Assembly (NCBI GenBank): GCA_951406725.2
Contig: OX597825.1
Location: 34,286,001 to 34,350,000 of the forward strand
Length of the DNA stretch: 64,000 nucleotides
Reading direction: 5' to 3'
From: Octopus vulgaris
Taxonomy: Eukaryota
The notes under the pieces were generated by a model. It was not told the DNA's origin. It ran no database searches and saw only the letters and a program-made list of their open reading frames with translations. The position numbers and the translations under genes are program-made. This document shows, one piece after another, positions 13,601-48,283 of the stretch (within the stretch, counting starts at the first letter, position 1; each line of letters starts with the position of its first letter).

Positions 13601-15793
13601 ATGGCCGTCCACTCGTGACCGAGGAAGACCATTGCCGACCTTCAGGAACATTGTGCGCTCTGGACTAACTTATATTTTGCATTTGCGGCTCCGTTGGTGG
13701 CTAATGAGCCCTGCTCTTGACAAGCATATACGACTGCAAACATTGCAGACCAAGCTTTTCCCATTCACTATATGAGCCGTGCGCTTTCGCGCAGCTCGCT
13801 TAAGTTCTTCATGCTGGATACGTGCTCTCTCAAAGGTGTCGGTCCCCTCCTTAACCTGCTTCCTCCATCTGTGGCGATGACAGGCATTGTTCTCCCAGTC
13901 AGTGTCCTGCATATCAAAGGCCTTTAACGAGGACTTGACACAGTCCTTAAATCGCAGCCTTGGTTTCTGCCAGAGTCTCCTTCCATTCACAAGTTCTCCA
14001 TAGAGCATCTGCTTAGGAATCCTTCTATCCTCCATTCTAATAAGGTGTCCAGTCCAACGCAACCTGTGCTTGTGTACCACCGCCTCAATACTCAAGATAT
14101 CAGCTGTCCTCAGGATCTGTGTGTCTGGAACTTTTGAGGTCCAGCCGACATTGAGAATGTGTCTGAGACATCTCTGATGAAAACGTTCAAGGACCCTGAC
14201 CTGACGTTTGTATAGAGTCCATGTTTCACATGAGTAGAGAAGCGATGTCAGTACACAAGCACGGTACACAGCAACTTTTGTTCTCCTTGCGATGCCATGT
14301 TGGGACCAGACACGAGACTGAAGAGACCGGAAGGAATTAGTTGCTCTCTGCAACCTGAAAGATATTTCCTCATCCAGGGAGCAAGAACAGCTGAGTGTGC
14401 TGCCCAGGTAGACAAACTTGTTTACTACCTTCAGAATCGTTCCTTCAACCAAGATAGCTGGTTCTATATATGGATTTCCTGGTGCAGGCTGGAACATTAC
14501 AACAGTCTTGTCCAGGCTAATGCTGAGTCCAAATGCCCTGCAAGAAGCAGAAATGCAATTCATGAGTACTTGCATGTCATCCACTGTATGAGTGACTAAG
14601 TCACAGTCATCTGCATAAAGGAGGTCACGAATAATAGACTGGGAAACCTTTGAATTGGCAGCAAATCGGCGAAGATTAAAGAGGCAGCCAGAAAATCGAT
14701 ATCTGACATATATTCCCAGAGAGCTAACCTTAGCAAAAGCATGAGTAAAAGTAGCAGCAACGTACAAAGAAAAGAGAGTTGGGGCAAGGATGTCACCCTG
14801 CTTAACACCATTTTCTACAGGAATGGTTCCTGCCATGGCACCACCAACATTGACCCAAGCCTCCATCCCATCATGAAATGATTTAATTATTGATACAAAG
14901 TGATCCGGACATCCAAGTTTGCCAAGTATTTTCCATAGAAAGGCCCTATTTACAGTATCAAAGGCCTTAGTTAAATCAATGAATACCTGGACAAGATCCA
15001 TATTCTGCTCATAGCACTTCTCCTGCATCTGTCTTGCTGTGAAAATCATATCCATTGTCCCTCTACCAGATCGGAAGCCACATTGAGATTCAGATAGGAC
15101 TTCATTTATGAGACATCCATTCAGACAGGTAAGAAGAATATTTGCCAGAACCTTGCCAGCCGCTGATAGTAGAGCAATACCTCTGTAGTTACCACACATT
15201 GTTCTGGCTCCTTTTCCTTTATAAAGGGACTTCATGAAGGGACTTTGTGATGCAATTACCACCAAATCGCAAGACCTCAGCACAAATTCCATCCTTTCCA
15301 GGTGCCCTACCAAGATTCAATTTACTTATTGATGTCATTACTTCATGTTTTGATGGCGAGGAGTCTAAGGAGTCAATGATAGGTCTTTGTTTCATAGTAT
15401 CAATCACTGTTTCATCCACAACTGACTCATGGTTTAGGAGTTCAGAGAAGTGTTCGATCCAGCGACCTGTGATTTCTGTTGATTTAGTAAACATAGTGGA
15501 AGACTCCTTGGAAAGCAAAGGAGCTGATGTGGAGCTCTTAGGTCCATAAGCTCGCTTCATAAGATGGTAAAGCTTCTTGCTGTCATTTGCATCAGCAGCA
15601 GCCTGAGCATCACGAGCAAGATCCTCCCACCAAGTGTTCTGCATCTTCCTGAGAGATCGCTGCAGTAGTGATTTTACACTGTTATAGTGGGCAAGTGCTA
15701 GACTTCGCTGCACAGTAGACAGTTCACTGTGCAGCAACACACTGTGGGCATGGCGCTTCACCACTAATAGTCGTTGAATTTCAGCATCATTCT
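13600..15793 (-). mobile_element. 5'-truncated RTE-clade LINE, relatively young
   Basis: 547-aa ORF 13670-15313 with NYRGIALLS, QCGFRSGRGT, FIDLTKAFD, GVKQGD, LLYADD and C-terminal C2H2 (CNVC..H..); upstream ORF 15219-15848 in another frame, implying a deletion near 15225; both ends lie in (CATA)n. Confidence 0.96.
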
Positions 15794-36864: not shown

Positions 36865-37241
36865 TAACATGTTACAAAATTTTAATTTTGAATTTAGTTT
36901 TAATTATAAAATTACATCTCTCAACACCTCAAATCGTTTCTTTTTCAGCTTTAGAATTATTGGCATATGGCATTTCAGAAGAATTGTTCTTGCTATTGTG
37001 AAGACCTATGAGAAGACCAAAACTCATATGTTGTCATCTGATGGAGAAAGGGAATTTTATTGGAATAGCTGTCCTATATATGTTGTAATGGTCACAGTTG
37101 GGACGTCTTTGATCATATCTGTTCCATCAGATTGGATCAAAGATGTCTCAACTGTGACCATTCCATCTTTCTACCCAGACATAGTGGACTCTATGTGTTT
37201 ATCACAGGATAGAGGTTTATTTTATTCTGTATATATAAAAG

Positions 37242-37518
37242 TGTGGTGTGGTGATGAGGGAGTGTGACAGAGAGGGAGGGAGCGGAAGTGGGTCTTGCAG
37301 GTCTCGCAGGGCGCATGCGCCGGCGGAAGCGGAAGTGAGAGACAGAACGCACGTGCGGCATCGACCAGGGCAGTCAGACTCGAGAACGACGCCAAGACGA
37401 CAAGACGCTAGCAAGTTGGCTCAAGGCGAATCCGGCTTCATCTCTACAGGTAAGACCAAATTACACTTCTAATTCTTTTCCTTGTTCTGTTACGCTCCTT
37501 TTCACCACACTTATCACA
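37242..37518 (+). repeat. 5' LTR
   Basis: TGTGGTGTGG...CTTATCACA; matches 41224-41500. Confidence 0.97.
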
Positions 37519-37530
37519 AGCTATTTCGGC
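37519..37530 (+). promoter_or_regulatory. Atypical primer-binding site complementary to tRNA-Phe nt 1-12
   Basis: AGCTATTTCGGC abuts the LTR end; its reverse complement GCCGAAATAGCT is the conserved 5' end of animal tRNA-Phe(GAA). No TGG (anti-CCA) start. Confidence 0.75.
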
Positions 37531-37571
37531 AAAATAATCACTCGGTTTCGTGAAAATAAAAAATAAAAATT

Positions 37572-38327
37572 ATGCAGACTGCTATGATTTCACGCGACCC
37601 TATAACACCGTTTTGCGGCGACACCGACGTGGTCGCTTGGTTGAGGAGGGTGAAGTTGGTGGCGAAGCTACATGGCATAGCTGACCTGGCTAGTTTTATG
37701 CCGTTGTATTTGGATGGCCCGGCGTTGGCGTTATATCTGGAGATGGAGGAAGCGGACCAACGCAGCGCGGACAAGGTGGAGATCCGACTTATGGAGGCCT
37801 TCGCGGAAGGAATGTTCGAAGCGTACACTCGACTGGGTAGGATGAGGTGGACAGGACAGCAGGTGGACGTGTTCGCCGGCGAGCTTAGAAGGTTGGCAAA
37901 ACTTGCGGGATATGAGGGAGAGTCGCTAGAACGCACGGTCAGGTTAGCGTTCGTGACCGGCTTTCCCGACATCATGTCGGTCGAGCTACAGAAGTTCCCG
38001 AACGTGCGTTCGATGCCGATGGCCGAGATTATATCGCGGGCACGTGTACTGGTGTCGTGCAGCAGGTCGACGTCGGTAGCAGCGACTGCAACGTCGAAAA
38101 GTGGCCCAGCTAGGAGCAACGGAGAGGGGCTGGGGAAAGAACGCATGCGGTCGTTTAAGGGACAGTGTTTCCGGTGCCAGGGCCCACACATGGTCCGTGA
38201 CTGCGCGTCGCCCAAGCCCGAGGTGATTTGCTACCGGTGCCGAGAGCCGGGGCATGTGGCCAGCGAGTGTCTGCGGGGAAACGGACCGCGGGAGACTACT
38301 GCGCCGGTAGTTGTCCCTTTGGATTAG
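37572..38327 (+). CDS. gag: Gag with two zinc knuckles
   Basis: 251 aa; CFRCQGPHMVRDC and CYRCREPGHVASEC. Confidence 0.95.
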   Translation: MQTAMISRDPITPFCGDTDVVAWLRRVKLVAKLHGIADLASFMPLYLDGPALALYLEMEEADQRSADKVEIRLMEAFAEGMFEAYTRLGRMRWTGQQVDVFAGELRRLAKLAGYEGESLERTVRLAFVTGFPDIMSVELQKFPNVRSMPMAEIISRARVLVSCSRSTSVAATATSKSGPARSNGEGLGKERMRSFKGQCFRCQGPHMVRDCASPKPEVICYRCREPGHVASECLRGNGPRETTAPVVVPLD

Positions 38328-41236
38328 TAGCGGCGCGTTTCTCATCGTTACCTGTGGTCGACATTCTGGTGAAGGGGAAGATGTCGCGAGCCCTGGTGGA
38401 CACGGGCTGTACGACGACCCTGATGACCACAGAAGTGGCAGAGATGTGGAGTGGAGGAAGCAGTGTCAGGGCAGTCGACGGAAGAGAAGTGCACTGCGAA
38501 GGGGTTACGGATGCGCAGATCGTGGTGCAGGGACTGCAGCTGACGTTGCGAGCGATTGTGGTCGGTCACTTGGTGGACGAGATCGACGTGGTGATGGGGA
38601 TGGATGCGATCACCCGTCTGGGAGGTGTTACCGTCAACGAGGCTGGCGTAACGTTTGGGCTAGCAGGGAAGCCGTGTAGGGCGACACCACGCACCGACGA
38701 CAACCGTGAGGAAATGGATGCGGTGCACACCATTGAAGACCAGGATTTTCGGGCTGTCTTTGATGGCAAGAGGTGGACAGTGGAGTGGCACTGGAAGGGA
38801 GAGCCCCCGATGTTAAAGAACAAAGTGGGCTGCTATCAGCATACTCTAAAAGGAGATGCCAGAAGTGAGTTCGAGGGGGAGGTGGAGCGGTGGATTAAGG
38901 AGGGCATACTGATCCCCTGGGAAAAAGAAGAGAGCGGAGTCCTGCCACTGATGGCGGTGATACAGCCCACAAAGCGTAAGGTCAGGTCAGTGCTCGACTT
39001 CCGAGAGCTGAATGACCACGTGTCGTGTCATACAGGCGGCGAGGCCACGGATGTCTGCGGAGACACCTTGCGAGAGTGGAGGCAGACGGCGGGGGCCTCC
39101 ACGATTGTCGATTTGAAGTCGGCATACCTTCAGGTTCATGTGGCTGAGAAACTATGGAGGTACCAGCTCGTCAGGTATAGGGGCCGGACGTACTGTCTGA
39201 CCAGGTTGGGATTCGGGCTGAATTCAGCTCCGAAGATTATGGCAACAATTCTCAAGGCCGTCCTGGGGAAGGTGGACAGAGTAAAAAGGGCCACCAATTC
39301 ATACATCGACGACATTCTGGTGGATGAAACCGTGATACCAGCAACGGAGGTCATAGGCCACCTGAAGAGTTTTGGACTGATCGCCAAGCCGCCAGAGGCT
39401 ATGGAGGGAGGTGCTGCACTGGGCCTCAAGCTATGGAGAGACAAAGCAGGCGCCTTGGTGTTCCGGCGAGGGAATGAGATCCCTGAACTGGGCGCCAGCA
39501 TGAGTAGACGGGAGCTGTTCTCTGTGTGTGGGAAGCTGGTGGGACACTACCCGATTGCAGGCTGGCTCCGGACAGCATGCAGCTTCATCAAGAGACGAGC
39601 CGAAGGAGTGAAGTGGAATGATAAAGTGGGGGAGAGGACGATCGACATGATGCAGGAAGTCCTGGTCAGAGTAAGAGCAGAGGACCCGGTGAGGGGCAGC
39701 TGGTACGTTCCCAAATCAAAGAGCGGGATCGTATGGTGTGACGCCAGTAGCATCGCAATAGGGATTGTCTTGGAAGTGGGAGGTGTCACGGTGGAAGATG
39801 CAGCCTGGCTCAGGAAGATGGATGACTGCAGTCACATCAACGTGGCGGAGTTGGAAGCCGTGCTGAAGGGGGTGAACCTAGCCTTGAAGTGGGGGTTGCA
39901 CACCATAGAAATCAGGACTGATTCAGCCACTGTACTTGGTTGGGCGACGGCAGTCATCACCGATGAGCGGAGGGTGCGGACCAAAGGGGCTGCAGAGATG
40001 CTGGTAAAGCGTCGATTGGGGATACTGCGTGAACTGACCACTGAGTTCAATCTGAAGCTGAGCGTGATCTTTGTGCCTTCCGAGAAGAACAGGGCAGACG
40101 TCCTGACCAGTGTTAAGCGAGCCTGGTTGCAAGTGCCAGAGGACGCGAAGCAGGATGTAGCTGCAGTATGCCATCTGAGCGACTCGGAGTTGCGGAGACT
40201 GCACACCATGCATCACATGGGTGTGGACAGGACGTTGTTCCTGGCCAGAAAAGTCGACTCCGACGTAACAAGACAGAGCGTGCGGAGAGTGGTTAGCAGT
40301 TGTGACAGGTGCCAGTCCATCGACCCTGCTCCGGTCGTGCATGAAGCGGGAAGTATTCCAGTGGACCAGGACTGGAGACGACTGGCGGTGGACATAACAC
40401 ACTACTGGCAGGGGACATACCTCTCAATGGTTGACTGCGGACCGGGGCGGTTCGCCATATGGAGGGAGATGAGGTCAGGAACCGCAGAAGAAATTGCGAA
40501 AGTGCTGAACGAGATATTCCTGGAACGAGGCCCCGTGGATGAACTGCTTCTGGACAACGGCACTGCATTTCGCTCGGAGGCGCTGAGAGAAATGCTTGAT
40601 GAGTGGAAGGTCAACCGCTTCTTCAGGGCGGCATACCGGCCAAGTGGAAACGGGGTGGTGGAAAGGCATCATCGTACCATCAAGGCCATGGCTGAGAGGG
40701 GTCACATTTCACCAGTCGAGGCCGTGTTTTGGTACAACATGTCGCCCAGATCAGGACAGGCCGAGGAGTCGGTGCCACACAGGGCAATATTCAGGTACGA
40801 GTGGAGGCATCCGTGTACTACATCAATGCGACCCGGGGCAGAGGAAGAGCACGCCTTCGTGCAGGTCGGGGAGGAAGTCTGGGTGAAACCCCCGAACGCA
40901 CGGTGTACATCGCAATGGGGAAAGGGGACAATAACCTCCGTAAATTCAAAGAATAACATCTCGGTAGATGGTATGCCACGCCACGTTTTGGACATACGGA
41001 GGATTGTCCATGCCCCGGAGGATGGGACAAGCAACAGTGGGCAAGACGATAACAACAGACAGGATGACGAGGTCGGCAGCAACACGCCAGAAACAAGTCC
41101 TAGGGTCGCACTGCGACCACAGAGGAGCGGCACCCTCCTCCCTGGTTGGCTGACTACGAAACCAGTTTCAGGTGCAGGAGCGAGTGAGGAAGCCAGTTCA
41201 GTGATCTATAGATCAGGGGGGCGTGTGGTGTGGTGA
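38228..41236 (+). CDS. pol: Pol polyprotein: protease, RT, RNase H, integrase (probably made as Gag-Pol)
   Basis: ALVDTGC; LDFRELN, DLKSAYLQ, LGFGL, YIDD; WCDAS..ELEAV..TDS..NRAD; H..HH..CDRC, AVD..LLDNG..VERHHRTIK; Gypsy domain order. Confidence 0.96.
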   Translation: MLPVPRAGACGQRVSAGKRTAGDYCAGSCPFGLVAARFSSLPVVDILVKGKMSRALVDTGCTTTLMTTEVAEMWSGGSSVRAVDGREVHCEGVTDAQIVVQGLQLTLRAIVVGHLVDEIDVVMGMDAITRLGGVTVNEAGVTFGLAGKPCRATPRTDDNREEMDAVHTIEDQDFRAVFDGKRWTVEWHWKGEPPMLKNKVGCYQHTLKGDARSEFEGEVERWIKEGILIPWEKEESGVLPLMAVIQPTKRKVRSVLDFRELNDHVSCHTGGEATDVCGDTLREWRQTAGASTIVDLKSAYLQVHVAEKLWRYQLVRYRGRTYCLTRLGFGLNSAPKIMATILKAVLGKVDRVKRATNSYIDDILVDETVIPATEVIGHLKSFGLIAKPPEAMEGGAALGLKLWRDKAGALVFRRGNEIPELGASMSRRELFSVCGKLVGHYPIAGWLRTACSFIKRRAEGVKWNDKVGERTIDMMQEVLVRVRAEDPVRGSWYVPKSKSGIVWCDASSIAIGIVLEVGGVTVEDAAWLRKMDDCSHINVAELEAVLKGVNLALKWGLHTIEIRTDSATVLGWATAVITDERRVRTKGAAEMLVKRRLGILRELTTEFNLKLSVIFVPSEKNRADVLTSVKRAWLQVPEDAKQDVAAVCHLSDSELRRLHTMHHMGVDRTLFLARKVDSDVTRQSVRRVVSSCDRCQSIDPAPVVHEAGSIPVDQDWRRLAVDITHYWQGTYLSMVDCGPGRFAIWREMRSGTAEEIAKVLNEIFLERGPVDELLLDNGTAFRSEALREMLDEWKVNRFFRAAYRPSGNGVVERHHRTIKAMAERGHISPVEAVFWYNMSPRSGQAEESVPHRAIFRYEWRHPCTTSMRPGAEEEHAFVQVGEEVWVKPPNARCTSQWGKGTITSVNSKNNISVDGMPRHVLDIRRIVHAPEDGTSNSGQDDNNRQDDEVGSNTPETSPRVALRPQRSGTLLPGWLTTKPVSGAGASEEASSVIYRSGGRVVW
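38276..38336 (+). promoter_or_regulatory. -1 ribosomal frameshift signal (slippery heptamer plus hairpin/pseudoknot)
   Basis: G GGA AAC in the gag frame at 38276-38282, 7-nt spacer, stem GGGAGACUACU/GGUAGUUGUCCC, loop GCGCC complementary to GGCGC at 38332-38336; pol is in the -1 frame. Confidence 0.85.
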
Positions 41237-41500
41237 TGAGGGAGTGTGACAGAGAGGGAGGGAGCGGAAGTGGGTCTTGCAGGTCTCGCAGGGCGCATGC
41301 GCCGGCGGAAGCGGAAGTGAGAGACAGAATGCACGTGCGGCATCGACCAGGGCAGTCAGACTCGAGAACGACGCCAAGACGACAAGACGCTAGCAAGTTG
41401 GCTCAAGGCGAATCCGGCTTCATCTCTACAGGTAAGACCAAATTACACTTCTAATTCTTTTCCTTGTTCTGTTACGCTCCTTTTCACCACACTTATCACA
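41224..41500 (+). repeat. 3' LTR
   Basis: Preceded by AGATCAGGGGGCG purine-rich tract; followed by TSD AAAAG. Confidence 0.97.
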
Positions 41501-41929
41501 AAAAGCTTGGCTATTTTTTCTAGCAGGTCATGCAACCACATACAGGCTCCATAGTTGGTCTGTCTCAGTAATAATTTTGTTGTTATTTAGCCTCAAATCA
41601 ACCTTGATACAGCAAACCTATGTTGCTATAAAAACATCTCTGGTTATTAAAGAAGGGTTTTGTTAGGGGAGTGGATATGGAAGTTGTTGTTCGCAAAAAG
41701 CAGCAGTAATTTTCTTCAGCTGAATACATGCCATTGATTGGTTAAAATCACCCAAATACAACAACTTTAACACAAAGTAACTTCTAAAATACAAAATTTT
41801 GTCAAAAACATGAAGAGTAAACTCTGTTCAGTGTGACACATTCTACCAGTATCCGAAGTTTCAAAGTGTTTAGTTACAAACAAATTCATTAAAAAATCTG
41901 TTGGTCAGATTGAAAAGATCCATTTCTCT

Positions 41930-43547: not shown

Positions 43548-45780
43548 TAGTTAGTTAGTTAGTTAATTTTTTGGCTCAAAAAGCAAAAAGCAAGGCCAAT
43601 TAGGGGGACATGGAGTTATGTACAGGGTGGTGTTCATGTAAAGAGTTCAGGCCACTTGTGGACAAGGGAGACTTTGAACCAAGCGGTCGTCGGCATCTTC
43701 ACCATCTCGTCTGGCAGCTTATTCCACGGATCCGCAAACCGGACGGAGAAATCGTCGCCGATGGAGCTTTTCGGAATGACCCCGCAGCGACGCTCTGGAG
43801 CAGGAGTGAAGAACAGCTCTTTCGAGAGGTTACACTTTCTGCTTATGATGTTATGAGCAAGAATGAGATCACCACGGCGTCGTCGTTTTTCTAGAGAATA
43901 AAGGTCGAGCGTCTTCAGCCTTTCTTCATAAGACAAATTCTCGAGACCAAGAACCATGCAGGTAGCCAGCTTCTGGACTCTTTCGAGATGCTGTATGTCT
44001 TTGAGGAGATAAGGAGAAGAGGCTTGAATCCCGTACTCCAATATGGGTCTCACCAGCGTGACATAGAGCGGTAGAAATATGGCTGCTGTGAGCATTCCGA
44101 ATGACCGTCGAATCAAGAACAGAACTCCGCGTGCTTTGTTGGCAGCATGGACGCACTGGGCCGAAGGCGAAAAGAAGGAAACCACCAAGATACCTAGGTC
44201 CTTTACCTGATCGGTCCTCTCCAGCAGCAGACTCGAAATCAAGTTGAGTTGCAGGAGGAGAGCCAACAGGCAGATGACAGCACTTTGATACATTCAGACA
44301 CAGGTCCCATTCGTTAGACCATCTCCAAATTTGGTGGAGGCATCGACGAAGATCCTCTATATCACCGCGAGGAGCGACCAATTTGACATCGTCGGCAAAT
44401 AGAAGGGTGTGTTGCGTGAGATCTTCGGGCAAGTCATTTATGAAGACTAAGAACAATAAGGGCCCAAGCACTGAACCTTGAGGCACGCCACTGCTCGCAC
44501 TGGAGACGTCGGACCGCAAACCATTAACTTGGACTTGGAAGGAGTGATCTTAGAGGAAGGCACCAACCCATCGTACAATATCTGGATGGAAACTATATGC
44601 TTGAAGCTTGACAAGTAATAGGCGGTGGTTTACCGAGTCAAAAGCTTTGGCAAAGTCCAATAAAACGATGTCAACAGCATCACTATCATCGAGGATGCGC
44701 GTCACCAATTCTTCCATTATCAGTAAGTTGGTCAAGCATGATCTCTTCGGCACGAAGCCGTGTTGGGAATCAGAGATAGAGGCTGTGTTTTGGAGGTGGA
44801 GCATCATACTTTTCTTAAGGATGGTTTCGAATATCTTGCTGATTATTGATGTAAGGGAAACTGGTCGGTAGTGAAGCGGGTCTTCGCAGCTCCCTTTCTT
44901 GAAAATTGGGCAGATTATCGCTGTTCTCCAGTCCGCAGGTATAACACCCGTCGCCAATGACATATTGAATAGACGTGTTAAGGGCTCGCAGATGACCGGA
45001 GCCAACGCTTTGATAACCCGTGGGTGTATGCCGTCAGGGCCGTGACCCTTGTTGACATCGAGGCCTTGAATAACGCATTCGACTTTGTCCCGCGTGATGA
45101 CCAATCGAAGCATTGGAGGTACCGATCTATCAAATGGAGGGGGTTCACGACCATCATCTTGTTTGAAAATAGTTGAAAAAGCCTCGGCAAATAATTGACT
45201 CTGTTGATAAGGGTCCTCAATCGATACGCCTGTTGAGTCTACCAACGTTGCAATTTGGTTGTTCAAGCGGGAATTCCGTTGGACATGGGCAAAGAAGGTT
45301 TTTGGATTGCTACTGGCGTTTGCCGCGATTTTGTATTCATATCTGAAGTGTTCTTCCTTTTCAATTTTCACGGCTCGGTCTCGTTGAGTTTTGTACACCT
45401 CAAAAGCTGCAGTCGAATCCAGATTTTTAGATTCAGCCCAAGCAATATCTCTGAGTCGAAGTTCTCGTTTAACCTTCTTCGTCACCCAGGGCTTGTGTTT
45501 CTTCTTCTTGGGAAGCCCAACGGGAACTGCCTGGTCAGTCAACCAGATTACATATGCTTTGAGGGATGACCATAGTTCGTCAACTGAGGACAACGTCATC
45601 AGGGATCGCCAGTCCAGAAGCGCGAAAGCCTCGGTTAGAATTTCAAGATTAATTGCAGAAAAGACTCTATGCGGCAGCGAAGTAGTCGTGGGCGTAGAAA
45701 AAGTTTTGTGCATGACGAACTTCAGGACCGCATGATCACTCTTGGCAAGAGGGGCGCACACAGATACGTCTGACACTGAT
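43548..45780 (-). mobile_element. 5'-truncated CR1-clade LINE inserted inside a family B SINE
   Basis: QHGFVPKRSCLTNL, LDFAKAFD, GVPQGSVLGPLLF, LFADD, VRPILEY; (TAAC)n tail; SINE halves at ~43390-43545 and ~45781-46010. Confidence 0.96.
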
Positions 45781-47607: not shown

Positions 47608-47700
47608 ACTTCGTGCTGCATATATATATATATATATATATTATTAGTGAATGGAAGAAATGGAGTTGAACGAAGATTGTACAGAATTCCTTTTATTACA

Positions 47701-47780
47701 TTCTACACATGTTTCAAAGGCCACAAATTTCCAAATTCTGATTAAATAAGGGTACCATATTGTGGCTTTCTCTTCAGGAA
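47701..47780 (-). ncRNA. Hammerhead ribozyme motif (left arm copy)
   Basis: Reverse complement of 47992-48071. Confidence 0.75.
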
Positions 47781-47991
47781 AAAACAGGAATTCCGTTGAC
47801 AGAACAAAACAAAACAGAGGCGCAGCAATTCGAACGAGGACGCTCTTTAAGAGCCCATGGCTGAACTGTTTATCAATGTACGTTGAAATCGGGGATTGAT
47901 AAACAGTTCAGCCATGGGCTCTTAAAGAGCGTCCTCGTTCGAATTGCTGCACCTCTGTTTTGTTTTGTTCTGTCAACGGAATTCCTGTTTT

Positions 47992-48071
47992 TTCCTGAAG
48001 AGAAAGCCACAATATGGTACCCTTATTTAATCAGAATTTGGAAATTTGTGGCCTTTGAAACATGTGTAGAA
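47992..48071 (+). ncRNA. Hammerhead ribozyme motif (right arm copy)
   Basis: UUC-CUGAAGA-GAAAGCCACAA...UUGUGGCCUUU-GAAAC-AUGU-GUA-GAA; canonical core. Confidence 0.75.
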
Positions 48072-48283
48072 CGTAATAAAAGGAATTCTGTACAATCTTC
48101 GTTCAACTCCATTTCTTCCATTCACTAATAATATTAAACTTCAATTATCCGCACCAACGCACGGTTGCAACACTAAATGGTCTTATCTCCAACCATGTTT
48201 TTTTCTGCTGTGACTTTTGCTACCCAGGTATCGGTTAAACTTTTGAATAATCTGTAACAAGAAAATTCATCTTTCTATTTCAC

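Follow-up and report, generated by a model that had tools for sequence, protein, structure and literature searches.

A retrotransposon of Octopus vulgaris with a primer-binding site complementary to the 5' end of tRNA-Phe

In the window, the whole 64,000-nt stretch of Octopus vulgaris DNA analysed here, we identified a young LTR retrotransposon whose primer-binding site does not correspond to the 3' end of a tRNA. The site, AGCTATTTCGGC (37519-37530), directly adjoins the CA that ends the 5' LTR, with no spacer and no TGG, and its reverse complement is identical at 12 of 12 positions to nucleotides 1-12 of the host tRNA-Phe(GAA). Judged from sequence comparison within the host genome and across distant relatives, the element probably primes minus-strand DNA synthesis with a piece of about 12 nt from the 5' end of this tRNA. 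A first-pass annotation of the window had described the site in these terms and had proposed 5'-fragment priming; the description is borne out and the interpretation is supported.

The element is 4259 bp long (37242-41500) and carries the 5-bp target duplication AAAAG on both flanks (Table 1). Its two LTRs differ at 1 of 277 bases. The pol reading frame is -1 relative to gag, and a slippery heptamer in the overlap makes a -1 gag-pol frameshift likely. Every catalytic residue is present in pol; those of the reverse transcriptase (RT), RNase H (its D-E-D-D included) and integrase are invariant in all 31 aligned relatives. The ATCA or TCA word that precedes the polypurine G-run recurs in distant relatives and is a possible RNase H cutting signal. 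Splicing from the donor-like word close to where the 5' LTR ends (37447-37520) would remove the LTR end from the RNA. Similar words, AG/GTAAG or AG/GTAGG (the slash marks the donor-like boundary), also occur ~30-70 nt upstream of the LTR end in own-genome families with unrelated LTRs.

Table 1 Features of the element, in window coordinates
Feature	Position	Strand	Remark
Left target-site duplication, AAAAG	37237..37241	+	same 5 bases at 41501-41505
5' LTR, 277 bp, TGTGG...TCACA	37242..37518	+	
Intron-like stretch: donor-like CAG/GTAAG, CTAAT and a pyrimidine tract, up to the AG with which the primer site begins	37450..37520 (with CAG from 37447)	+	from sequence; splicing putative
Primer-binding site AGCTATTTCGGC, 12/12 complementary to tRNA-Phe(GAA) nt 1-12	37519..37530	+	
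First base past the site; single-base insertion/change hot spot among close copies	37531..37531	+	
gag ORF, two CCHC knuckles	37572..38327	+	
GGGAAAC slippery heptamer, then a predicted stem; gag/pol overlap	38276..38282	+	
pol ORF, stop to stop, 1011 aa: protease, RT, DUF7047, RNase H, integrase	38201..41236	+	
Polypurine tract region AGATCAGGGGGGCG, directly before the 3' LTR	41210..41223	+	
3' LTR	41224..41500	+	
Right target-site duplication, AAAAG	41501..41505	+	

The match to the host tRNA was established in a search of the 2.8-Gb host genome. The 15-mer GCCGAAATAGCTCAG, which is the reverse complement of the site extended by CAG, has 94 matches there versus 0 for the control, and all 25 of the loci inspected are tRNA-Phe(GAA) genes that begin at that G, as called by ARAGORN. 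Host tRNA-Phe thus starts with GCCGAAATAGCT in 25 of 25 genes, as the first-pass annotation had assumed. We also looked among the GCCGAAATAGCTCAG matches for longer captured primers and found none, the 25 inspected loci all being tRNA genes. Within the element, no perfect complement to tRNA-Phe is longer than this 12-mer, the runner-up being 8 nt long and located within gag. By simple arithmetic, a fixed 12-mer would match the 5' end of one of ~100 tRNAs by chance with a probability of ~6e-6, and any tRNA position with a probability of 4e-4. The 12-bp duplex between site and tRNA is predicted at -18.7 kcal/mol versus -8.8 kcal/mol for the acceptor stem alone, both for unmodified RNA; a co-fold with the full-length tRNA was set aside because the unmodified tRNA gave no cloverleaf. 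The earlier reading had also drawn attention to the identity of TTTCGGCA with the tRNA's own 3' acceptor strand. Seven of its letters do match, because that strand also pairs with nt 1-7, and the last A is not conserved (A 24, C 12, T 6 and G 2 in 44 elements); the identity is incidental.

Two arrangements of tRNA-Phe genes were seen in the host genome. One is a tandem array of ~45 genes at 200-bp spacing (L248, G000:C18:30147732-30157146), with a D-loop change in 5 of 5 copies examined. The other consists of many dispersed genes (L021-L032, L241-L247) with a common 3' flank starting TCCGG(T)GG and a leader that often ends in CCA. The shared flank and leader suggest that the dispersed genes spread from one gene, or that they belong to a tRNA-headed repeat.

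Within the Octopus genome the site is strongly conserved. It is exact in 19 of the 20 closest copies. Twenty more distant loci were taken from 150 RT matches listed; in most of the twenty, pol identity is 66-75%, and the LTRs of several are unrelated. The site is exact in 13 of these loci, has one change in 3 and two changes in 1, is deleted in 1, and lies beyond a missing 5' end in 2. The sequences of these distant loci part company immediately past the twelfth base of the site. Junctions of ACA with the site number 279 in the genome versus 3 for the control, and gag or pol lies downstream in 28 of the first 30 such matches listed. Among the 20 close copies, 3 insertions and 1 substitution occur at position 13, and no change is seen in the 19 columns that follow. 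Searches of the same genome with the RTs of two distant lineages returned only the already-known lineage among the 150 scored matches listed for each. At one locus (L051, G000:C4:102074400-102080500) the 5' LTR's end and the first half of the primer site are missing, through a deletion that apparently ran between short words of similar sequence.

To extend the comparison to other hosts, we used 72 related loci from one scan of metagenome contigs, 43 of which include the gag start; their pol is 36-55% identical. The CA plus the site, within three differences, lies upstream of the gag start in 38 of these 43. The five misses comprise two loci without upstream DNA (one with the site elsewhere in a permuted contig), one truncated locus (L087) and two with 4 differences. 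The expectation that the 12 nt past the LTR would be conserved therefore held both in own-genome families with unrelated LTRs and in distant relatives. Of 54 site differences among the relatives, 52 fall at positions 7-9, which face acceptor-stem nt 4-6, and none at positions 1-5, 10 or 12. Information content drops from 2 bits to 0.4 at position 13, a position that was not selected for, so that conservation ends with the base opposite G1. Written as the primers that they would pair with, the common variants read GCC-GAA/TAG/GCG/GTG/GGG-ATAGCT, with change confined to nt 4-6; in one further variant (L103) nt 7 is altered as well. The two misses with 4 differences from the window site (L116, L120) have CGCTATCTGTGC after the LTR's CA and are either decayed or a further variant. 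A search of IMG/VR for relatives found none.

Pattern scans of public contigs found tRNA-Phe(GAA) genes starting GCCGAAA, GCCTAGA, GCCGCGA and GCCGTGA, which are not linked to the hosts of the elements; a GCCGGGA start was not found among tRNA-Phe genes in a scan that fixed GCC and ATAGCT. Altogether 11 of the 64 possible triplets occur among the tRNA-Phe 5' ends found, and 3 of the 4 non-query site variants lie within this set (p ~0.011). In a pol tree of 47 fragments, from which 6 short ones were dropped, the variants are not monophyletic. Starred sister pairs (L072/L078, L062/L063) carry unlike variants, GGG appears on two separate branches that belong to one accession series, GCG is scattered, and the TAG elements all fall into a single clade. 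This spread over the tree fits a site that follows the host, but independent changes of variant are few, since many loci from the metagenomes represent the same element assembled more than once and TAG is a single clade. One TAG element (L083) is present in 22 runs belonging to 15 studies, and 21 of these runs bear the label annelid metagenome; LTR-sized pieces at ~3038-3212 in contigs of four runs place its site directly after the LTR as well. Several prokaryote genome records in the set L139-L207 contain eukaryote-type tRNA clusters with A34 anticodons, pointing to host contamination.

A priming cycle that would account for these features can be outlined. The site is predicted to displace the 3' acceptor strand of the tRNA and to open the first D-stem pairs. 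The tRNA would be cut at, or trimmed back to, the point where the duplex ends, after U12; from what is known of LTR-element replication the primer 3'-OH must face the LTR end, so the tRNA would have to end there (or at G10). The cut may be made by the element's own RNase H acting on an RNA duplex, much as in Tf1 but in trans, or by a host nuclease that makes or trims a longer 5' fragment, and we lean slightly towards the former. RT would then extend the primer 3'-OH into U5, and plus-strand synthesis would copy the primer up to G1 and run off. Such run-off would keep the length at 12, overwrite the site with sequence copied from the host tRNA and leave an untemplated base at position 13; it would explain both why conservation ends so sharply and why nt 4-6 are tracked. 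The changes at position 13 in close copies lend it only modest support, because two of the three insertions extend an A run and may reflect slippage. In retroviruses the primer is copied back in this way, and strict inheritance of the site is reported for Ty1 and Ty3 (sections of PMC7472051), so that the tracking of nt 4-6 may also come from selection. The Tf1 primer is released by an RNase H cut between nt 11 and 12 (PMC7175516, PMC4600332, in part). The RNase H form of 5'-fragment priming comes close to an even chance without reaching it. The portions of literature surveyed gave no precedent for a cut inside the D-stem of a modified tRNA.

The closest competitor keeps the tRNA and shortens the primer to nt 1-10, ending at G10, so that the AG beside the LTR becomes a 2-nt spacer trimmed by integrase and perhaps a splice acceptor. 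We regard this as a minor possibility, and it is counted within the probability given to 5'-fragment priming as a whole. One to three non-G bases often stand between the polypurine G-run and the 3' LTR, which fits 2-nt processed ends, and in own-genome families a donor-like AG/GTAAG or AG/GTAGG and a pyrimidine tract precede the AG. Against it, AAG is a weak splice acceptor. The AG is unchanged in 38 of 38 relatives and is the complement of C11-U12, whereas the two bases at the polypurine end vary (CG, CA, GA, GG and AG, by heuristic calls); because the one is constant and the other varies, pairing through U12 is favoured. It is improbable that the site instead docks an intact tRNA-Phe for packaging or folding, with synthesis starting from the freed 3' CCA at a second site or from an uncut 2'-OH branch. 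Invasion of the acceptor stem would indeed release the tRNA 3' end, but there is no site for that end beside the LTR, the best match being the 8 nt inside gag, and in 38 of 43 relatives the duplex stops right at the LTR's CA, where a primer 3' end would be expected. Priming from the 3' CCA was rejected, as the element holds no second site for it. We also considered a pre-tRNA with its leader as the primer and rejected it: most host leaders end in CA or CCA, so that the site should be followed by TG or TGG, and at position 13 A or C predominates, with T in 6 of 44.

Readings that dispense with tRNA-Phe fare worse. Another host RNA ending in GCCGAAAUAGCU could be the primer and the tRNA match incidental, which we consider very unlikely. 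The genome does contain 89 copies of the 12-mer with neither C nor an LTR end next to it, but this is fewer than the ~200 expected by chance from base composition, and such copies are scattered singletons among the first 100 listed. As the 89 stray copies lie within chance expectation, no third family is evident; a control count of 2478 for the 12-mer was inflated and was left out of the comparison. In addition, the variation among relatives is restricted to positions facing acceptor-stem nt 4-6. Least likely of all is self-priming of the Tf1 type, in which the element's own 5' end, or a splice junction within the LTR, would supply the primer. Tf1 has an 11-nt site at the same position (PMC7175516, in part), a donor-like site is present in the LTR, and one element (L093) has an 11/12 complement 327 nt upstream. 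In the 350 nt scanned upstream of the site, however, the best Watson-Crick complement reaches 6-9 of 12, the level of shuffled sequence, in 49 of 50 elements, and GT-AG junctions do no better than 10 of 12, a level seen in 2 of 50. The site is moreover constant although the LTRs are unrelated. Self-priming, which the first-pass annotation had named as a competing account, was rejected on these grounds for the 350 nt upstream of the site, as was splice-junction priming.

With respect to classification, the element shows the features of an LTR retrotransposon of the Ortervirales type, namely two TG..CA LTRs, a target duplication, a polypurine tract, gag and pol. In 15 automatically scored relatives the target duplication is 5 bp in 9 and 4 bp in 4, with boundary errors in 2. 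The pol order PR-RT-RH-IN is that of Metaviridae (Ty3-gypsy); the tRNA 3'-end site of this family is absent, though the family has known exceptions, such as Tf1. At the C-terminus of integrase, the GPF/Y motif is lacking at the expected position in 31 of 31 aligned proteins. Some gypsy lineages lack GPF/Y. The earlier label of 'Gypsy', based on domain order only, is unproven, no GPF/Y motif being present. The Pfam RVT_1 score is below cut-off and there is no RT_RNaseH match; the PDB matches listed are weak and mostly retroviral. The lineage is marked by DUF7047 at the position of the RT thumb and by an RNase H that scores with RVT_3 and RNase_H, not with the usual gypsy RT_RNaseH models. Its RT-RH motifs give us the impression of resembling those of DIRS elements. 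At E<=1e-30 there are 735 related proteins, with named members in crustaceans and molluscs, and the closest named pol relatives belong to Argonauta, Oratosquilla, Petrolisthes and Aplysia. A clade name was sought by cluster look-ups and in the Atlas, and none was found. Tentatively, and with somewhat less confidence than we attach to the RNase H cut itself, we suggest that the whole DUF7047-bearing invertebrate lineage, possibly outside the named Gypsy clades, shares one scheme: acceptor-stem invasion, a cut by its own RNase H after nt 12, a 12-mer copied back in each cycle and a site that tracks the host tRNA.

In copia and Ty5 the pairing partner is the anticodon-stem region of initiator tRNA-Met, whose 5' half serves as primer. 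Like these hemiviruses (Drosophila copia and yeast Ty5; PMC8515867, in part), the element here would use a host tRNA fragment as primer and not the CCA end. The Copia element FunCo1 has a site complementary to an internal region of tRNA-Lys (available text of PMC5445492). All three differ from the present element in their Copia order, with IN before RT in place of PR-RT-RH-IN, and here the pairing is to tRNA-Phe nt 1-12. The geometry of the site implies a primer that is a short tRNA segment, with both the tRNA and its region unlike those of copia and Ty5. As in Tf1, Tf2 and Tj1 (Tf1/sushi, Ty3/gypsy), a short site just past the 5' LTR pairs with an RNA at its extreme 5' end; here, however, that RNA is a host tRNA in trans, the site has 12 nt and there is no complement in the element's own LTR. 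The element would work like a cross between Tf1 self-priming and hemivirus priming and is a member of neither. It shares its genome layout and the position of the site with canonical Metaviridae and with endogenous retroviruses, including IAP, which itself primes with tRNA-Phe(GAA) (PMC7472051, in part). Their sites complement the tRNA 3' end (PMC7879559, in part), whereas the one described here complements the 5' end and has no TGG. Troyka (Kojima 2025, available sections of PMC12440569) is likewise a divergent lineage of aquatic animals with PR-RT-RH-IN order, no tether and no GPF/Y. Troyka elements have CG..CG ends, 3-bp duplications and a CX2CX8-10HX4C knuckle, whereas the present element has TG..CA ends, 5-bp duplications and CX2CX3-4HX4C knuckles; membership in Troyka was rejected because termini, duplication length and knuckle all differ. 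Primer, PBS and tRNA are unmentioned in those sections of the Troyka paper.

LTR elements have been described, in the portions of literature available, to start from a tRNA 3' end, from an internal or half-tRNA segment, or from their own 5' end; a site for the first 12 nt of a tRNA would be a fourth geometry. No description of a primer site for a tRNA 5' end was found in the full-text literature, a scope that leaves out most subscription journals, Repbase and supplements, and an earlier mention is possible. The available parts of PMC13191261, PMC4600332, PMC7879559, PMC5445492 and PMC13524379 contain no such description. The main texts of three mollusc and polychaete LTR surveys (PMC6238403, PMC8556966, PMC8220671) are without tRNA analysis, the word being absent from the first two. 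The 12-mer string itself was found in three papers, which to judge by their listings concern RNA methyltransferases. We regard the site for the tRNA-Phe 5' end as real and lineage-wide, and as a probable variant of tRNA-fragment priming with a geometry that we did not find described. Annotation limited to tRNA 3' ends is blind to such a site; the search in PMC13524379, for instance, used each tRNA's last 12 nt, according to the part available. The site also offers a defined substrate on which to test for cleavage of a host tRNA by an RT-RNase H within an RNA duplex, and it bears on whether very short 5' tRNA fragments are functional and on the relationship between self-priming and tRNA priming. 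If the proposal is true, Tf1 chemistry would be acting in trans on a tRNA, bridging these two modes.

The window contains further repeats. A 240-bp inverted repeat at 47638-48134 is 99% complementary and has a 17-nt loop. Two more reverse-transcriptase ORFs (Pfam RVT_1) lie on the minus strand at 13670-15316 and 44550-45779 and probably belong to non-LTR elements. Three direct repeats (17656-17955/19475-19774, 27551-27769/31154-31372 and 2208-2402/2800-2994) are present in two copies each and have no TG..CA ends; they are local duplications, not LTRs.
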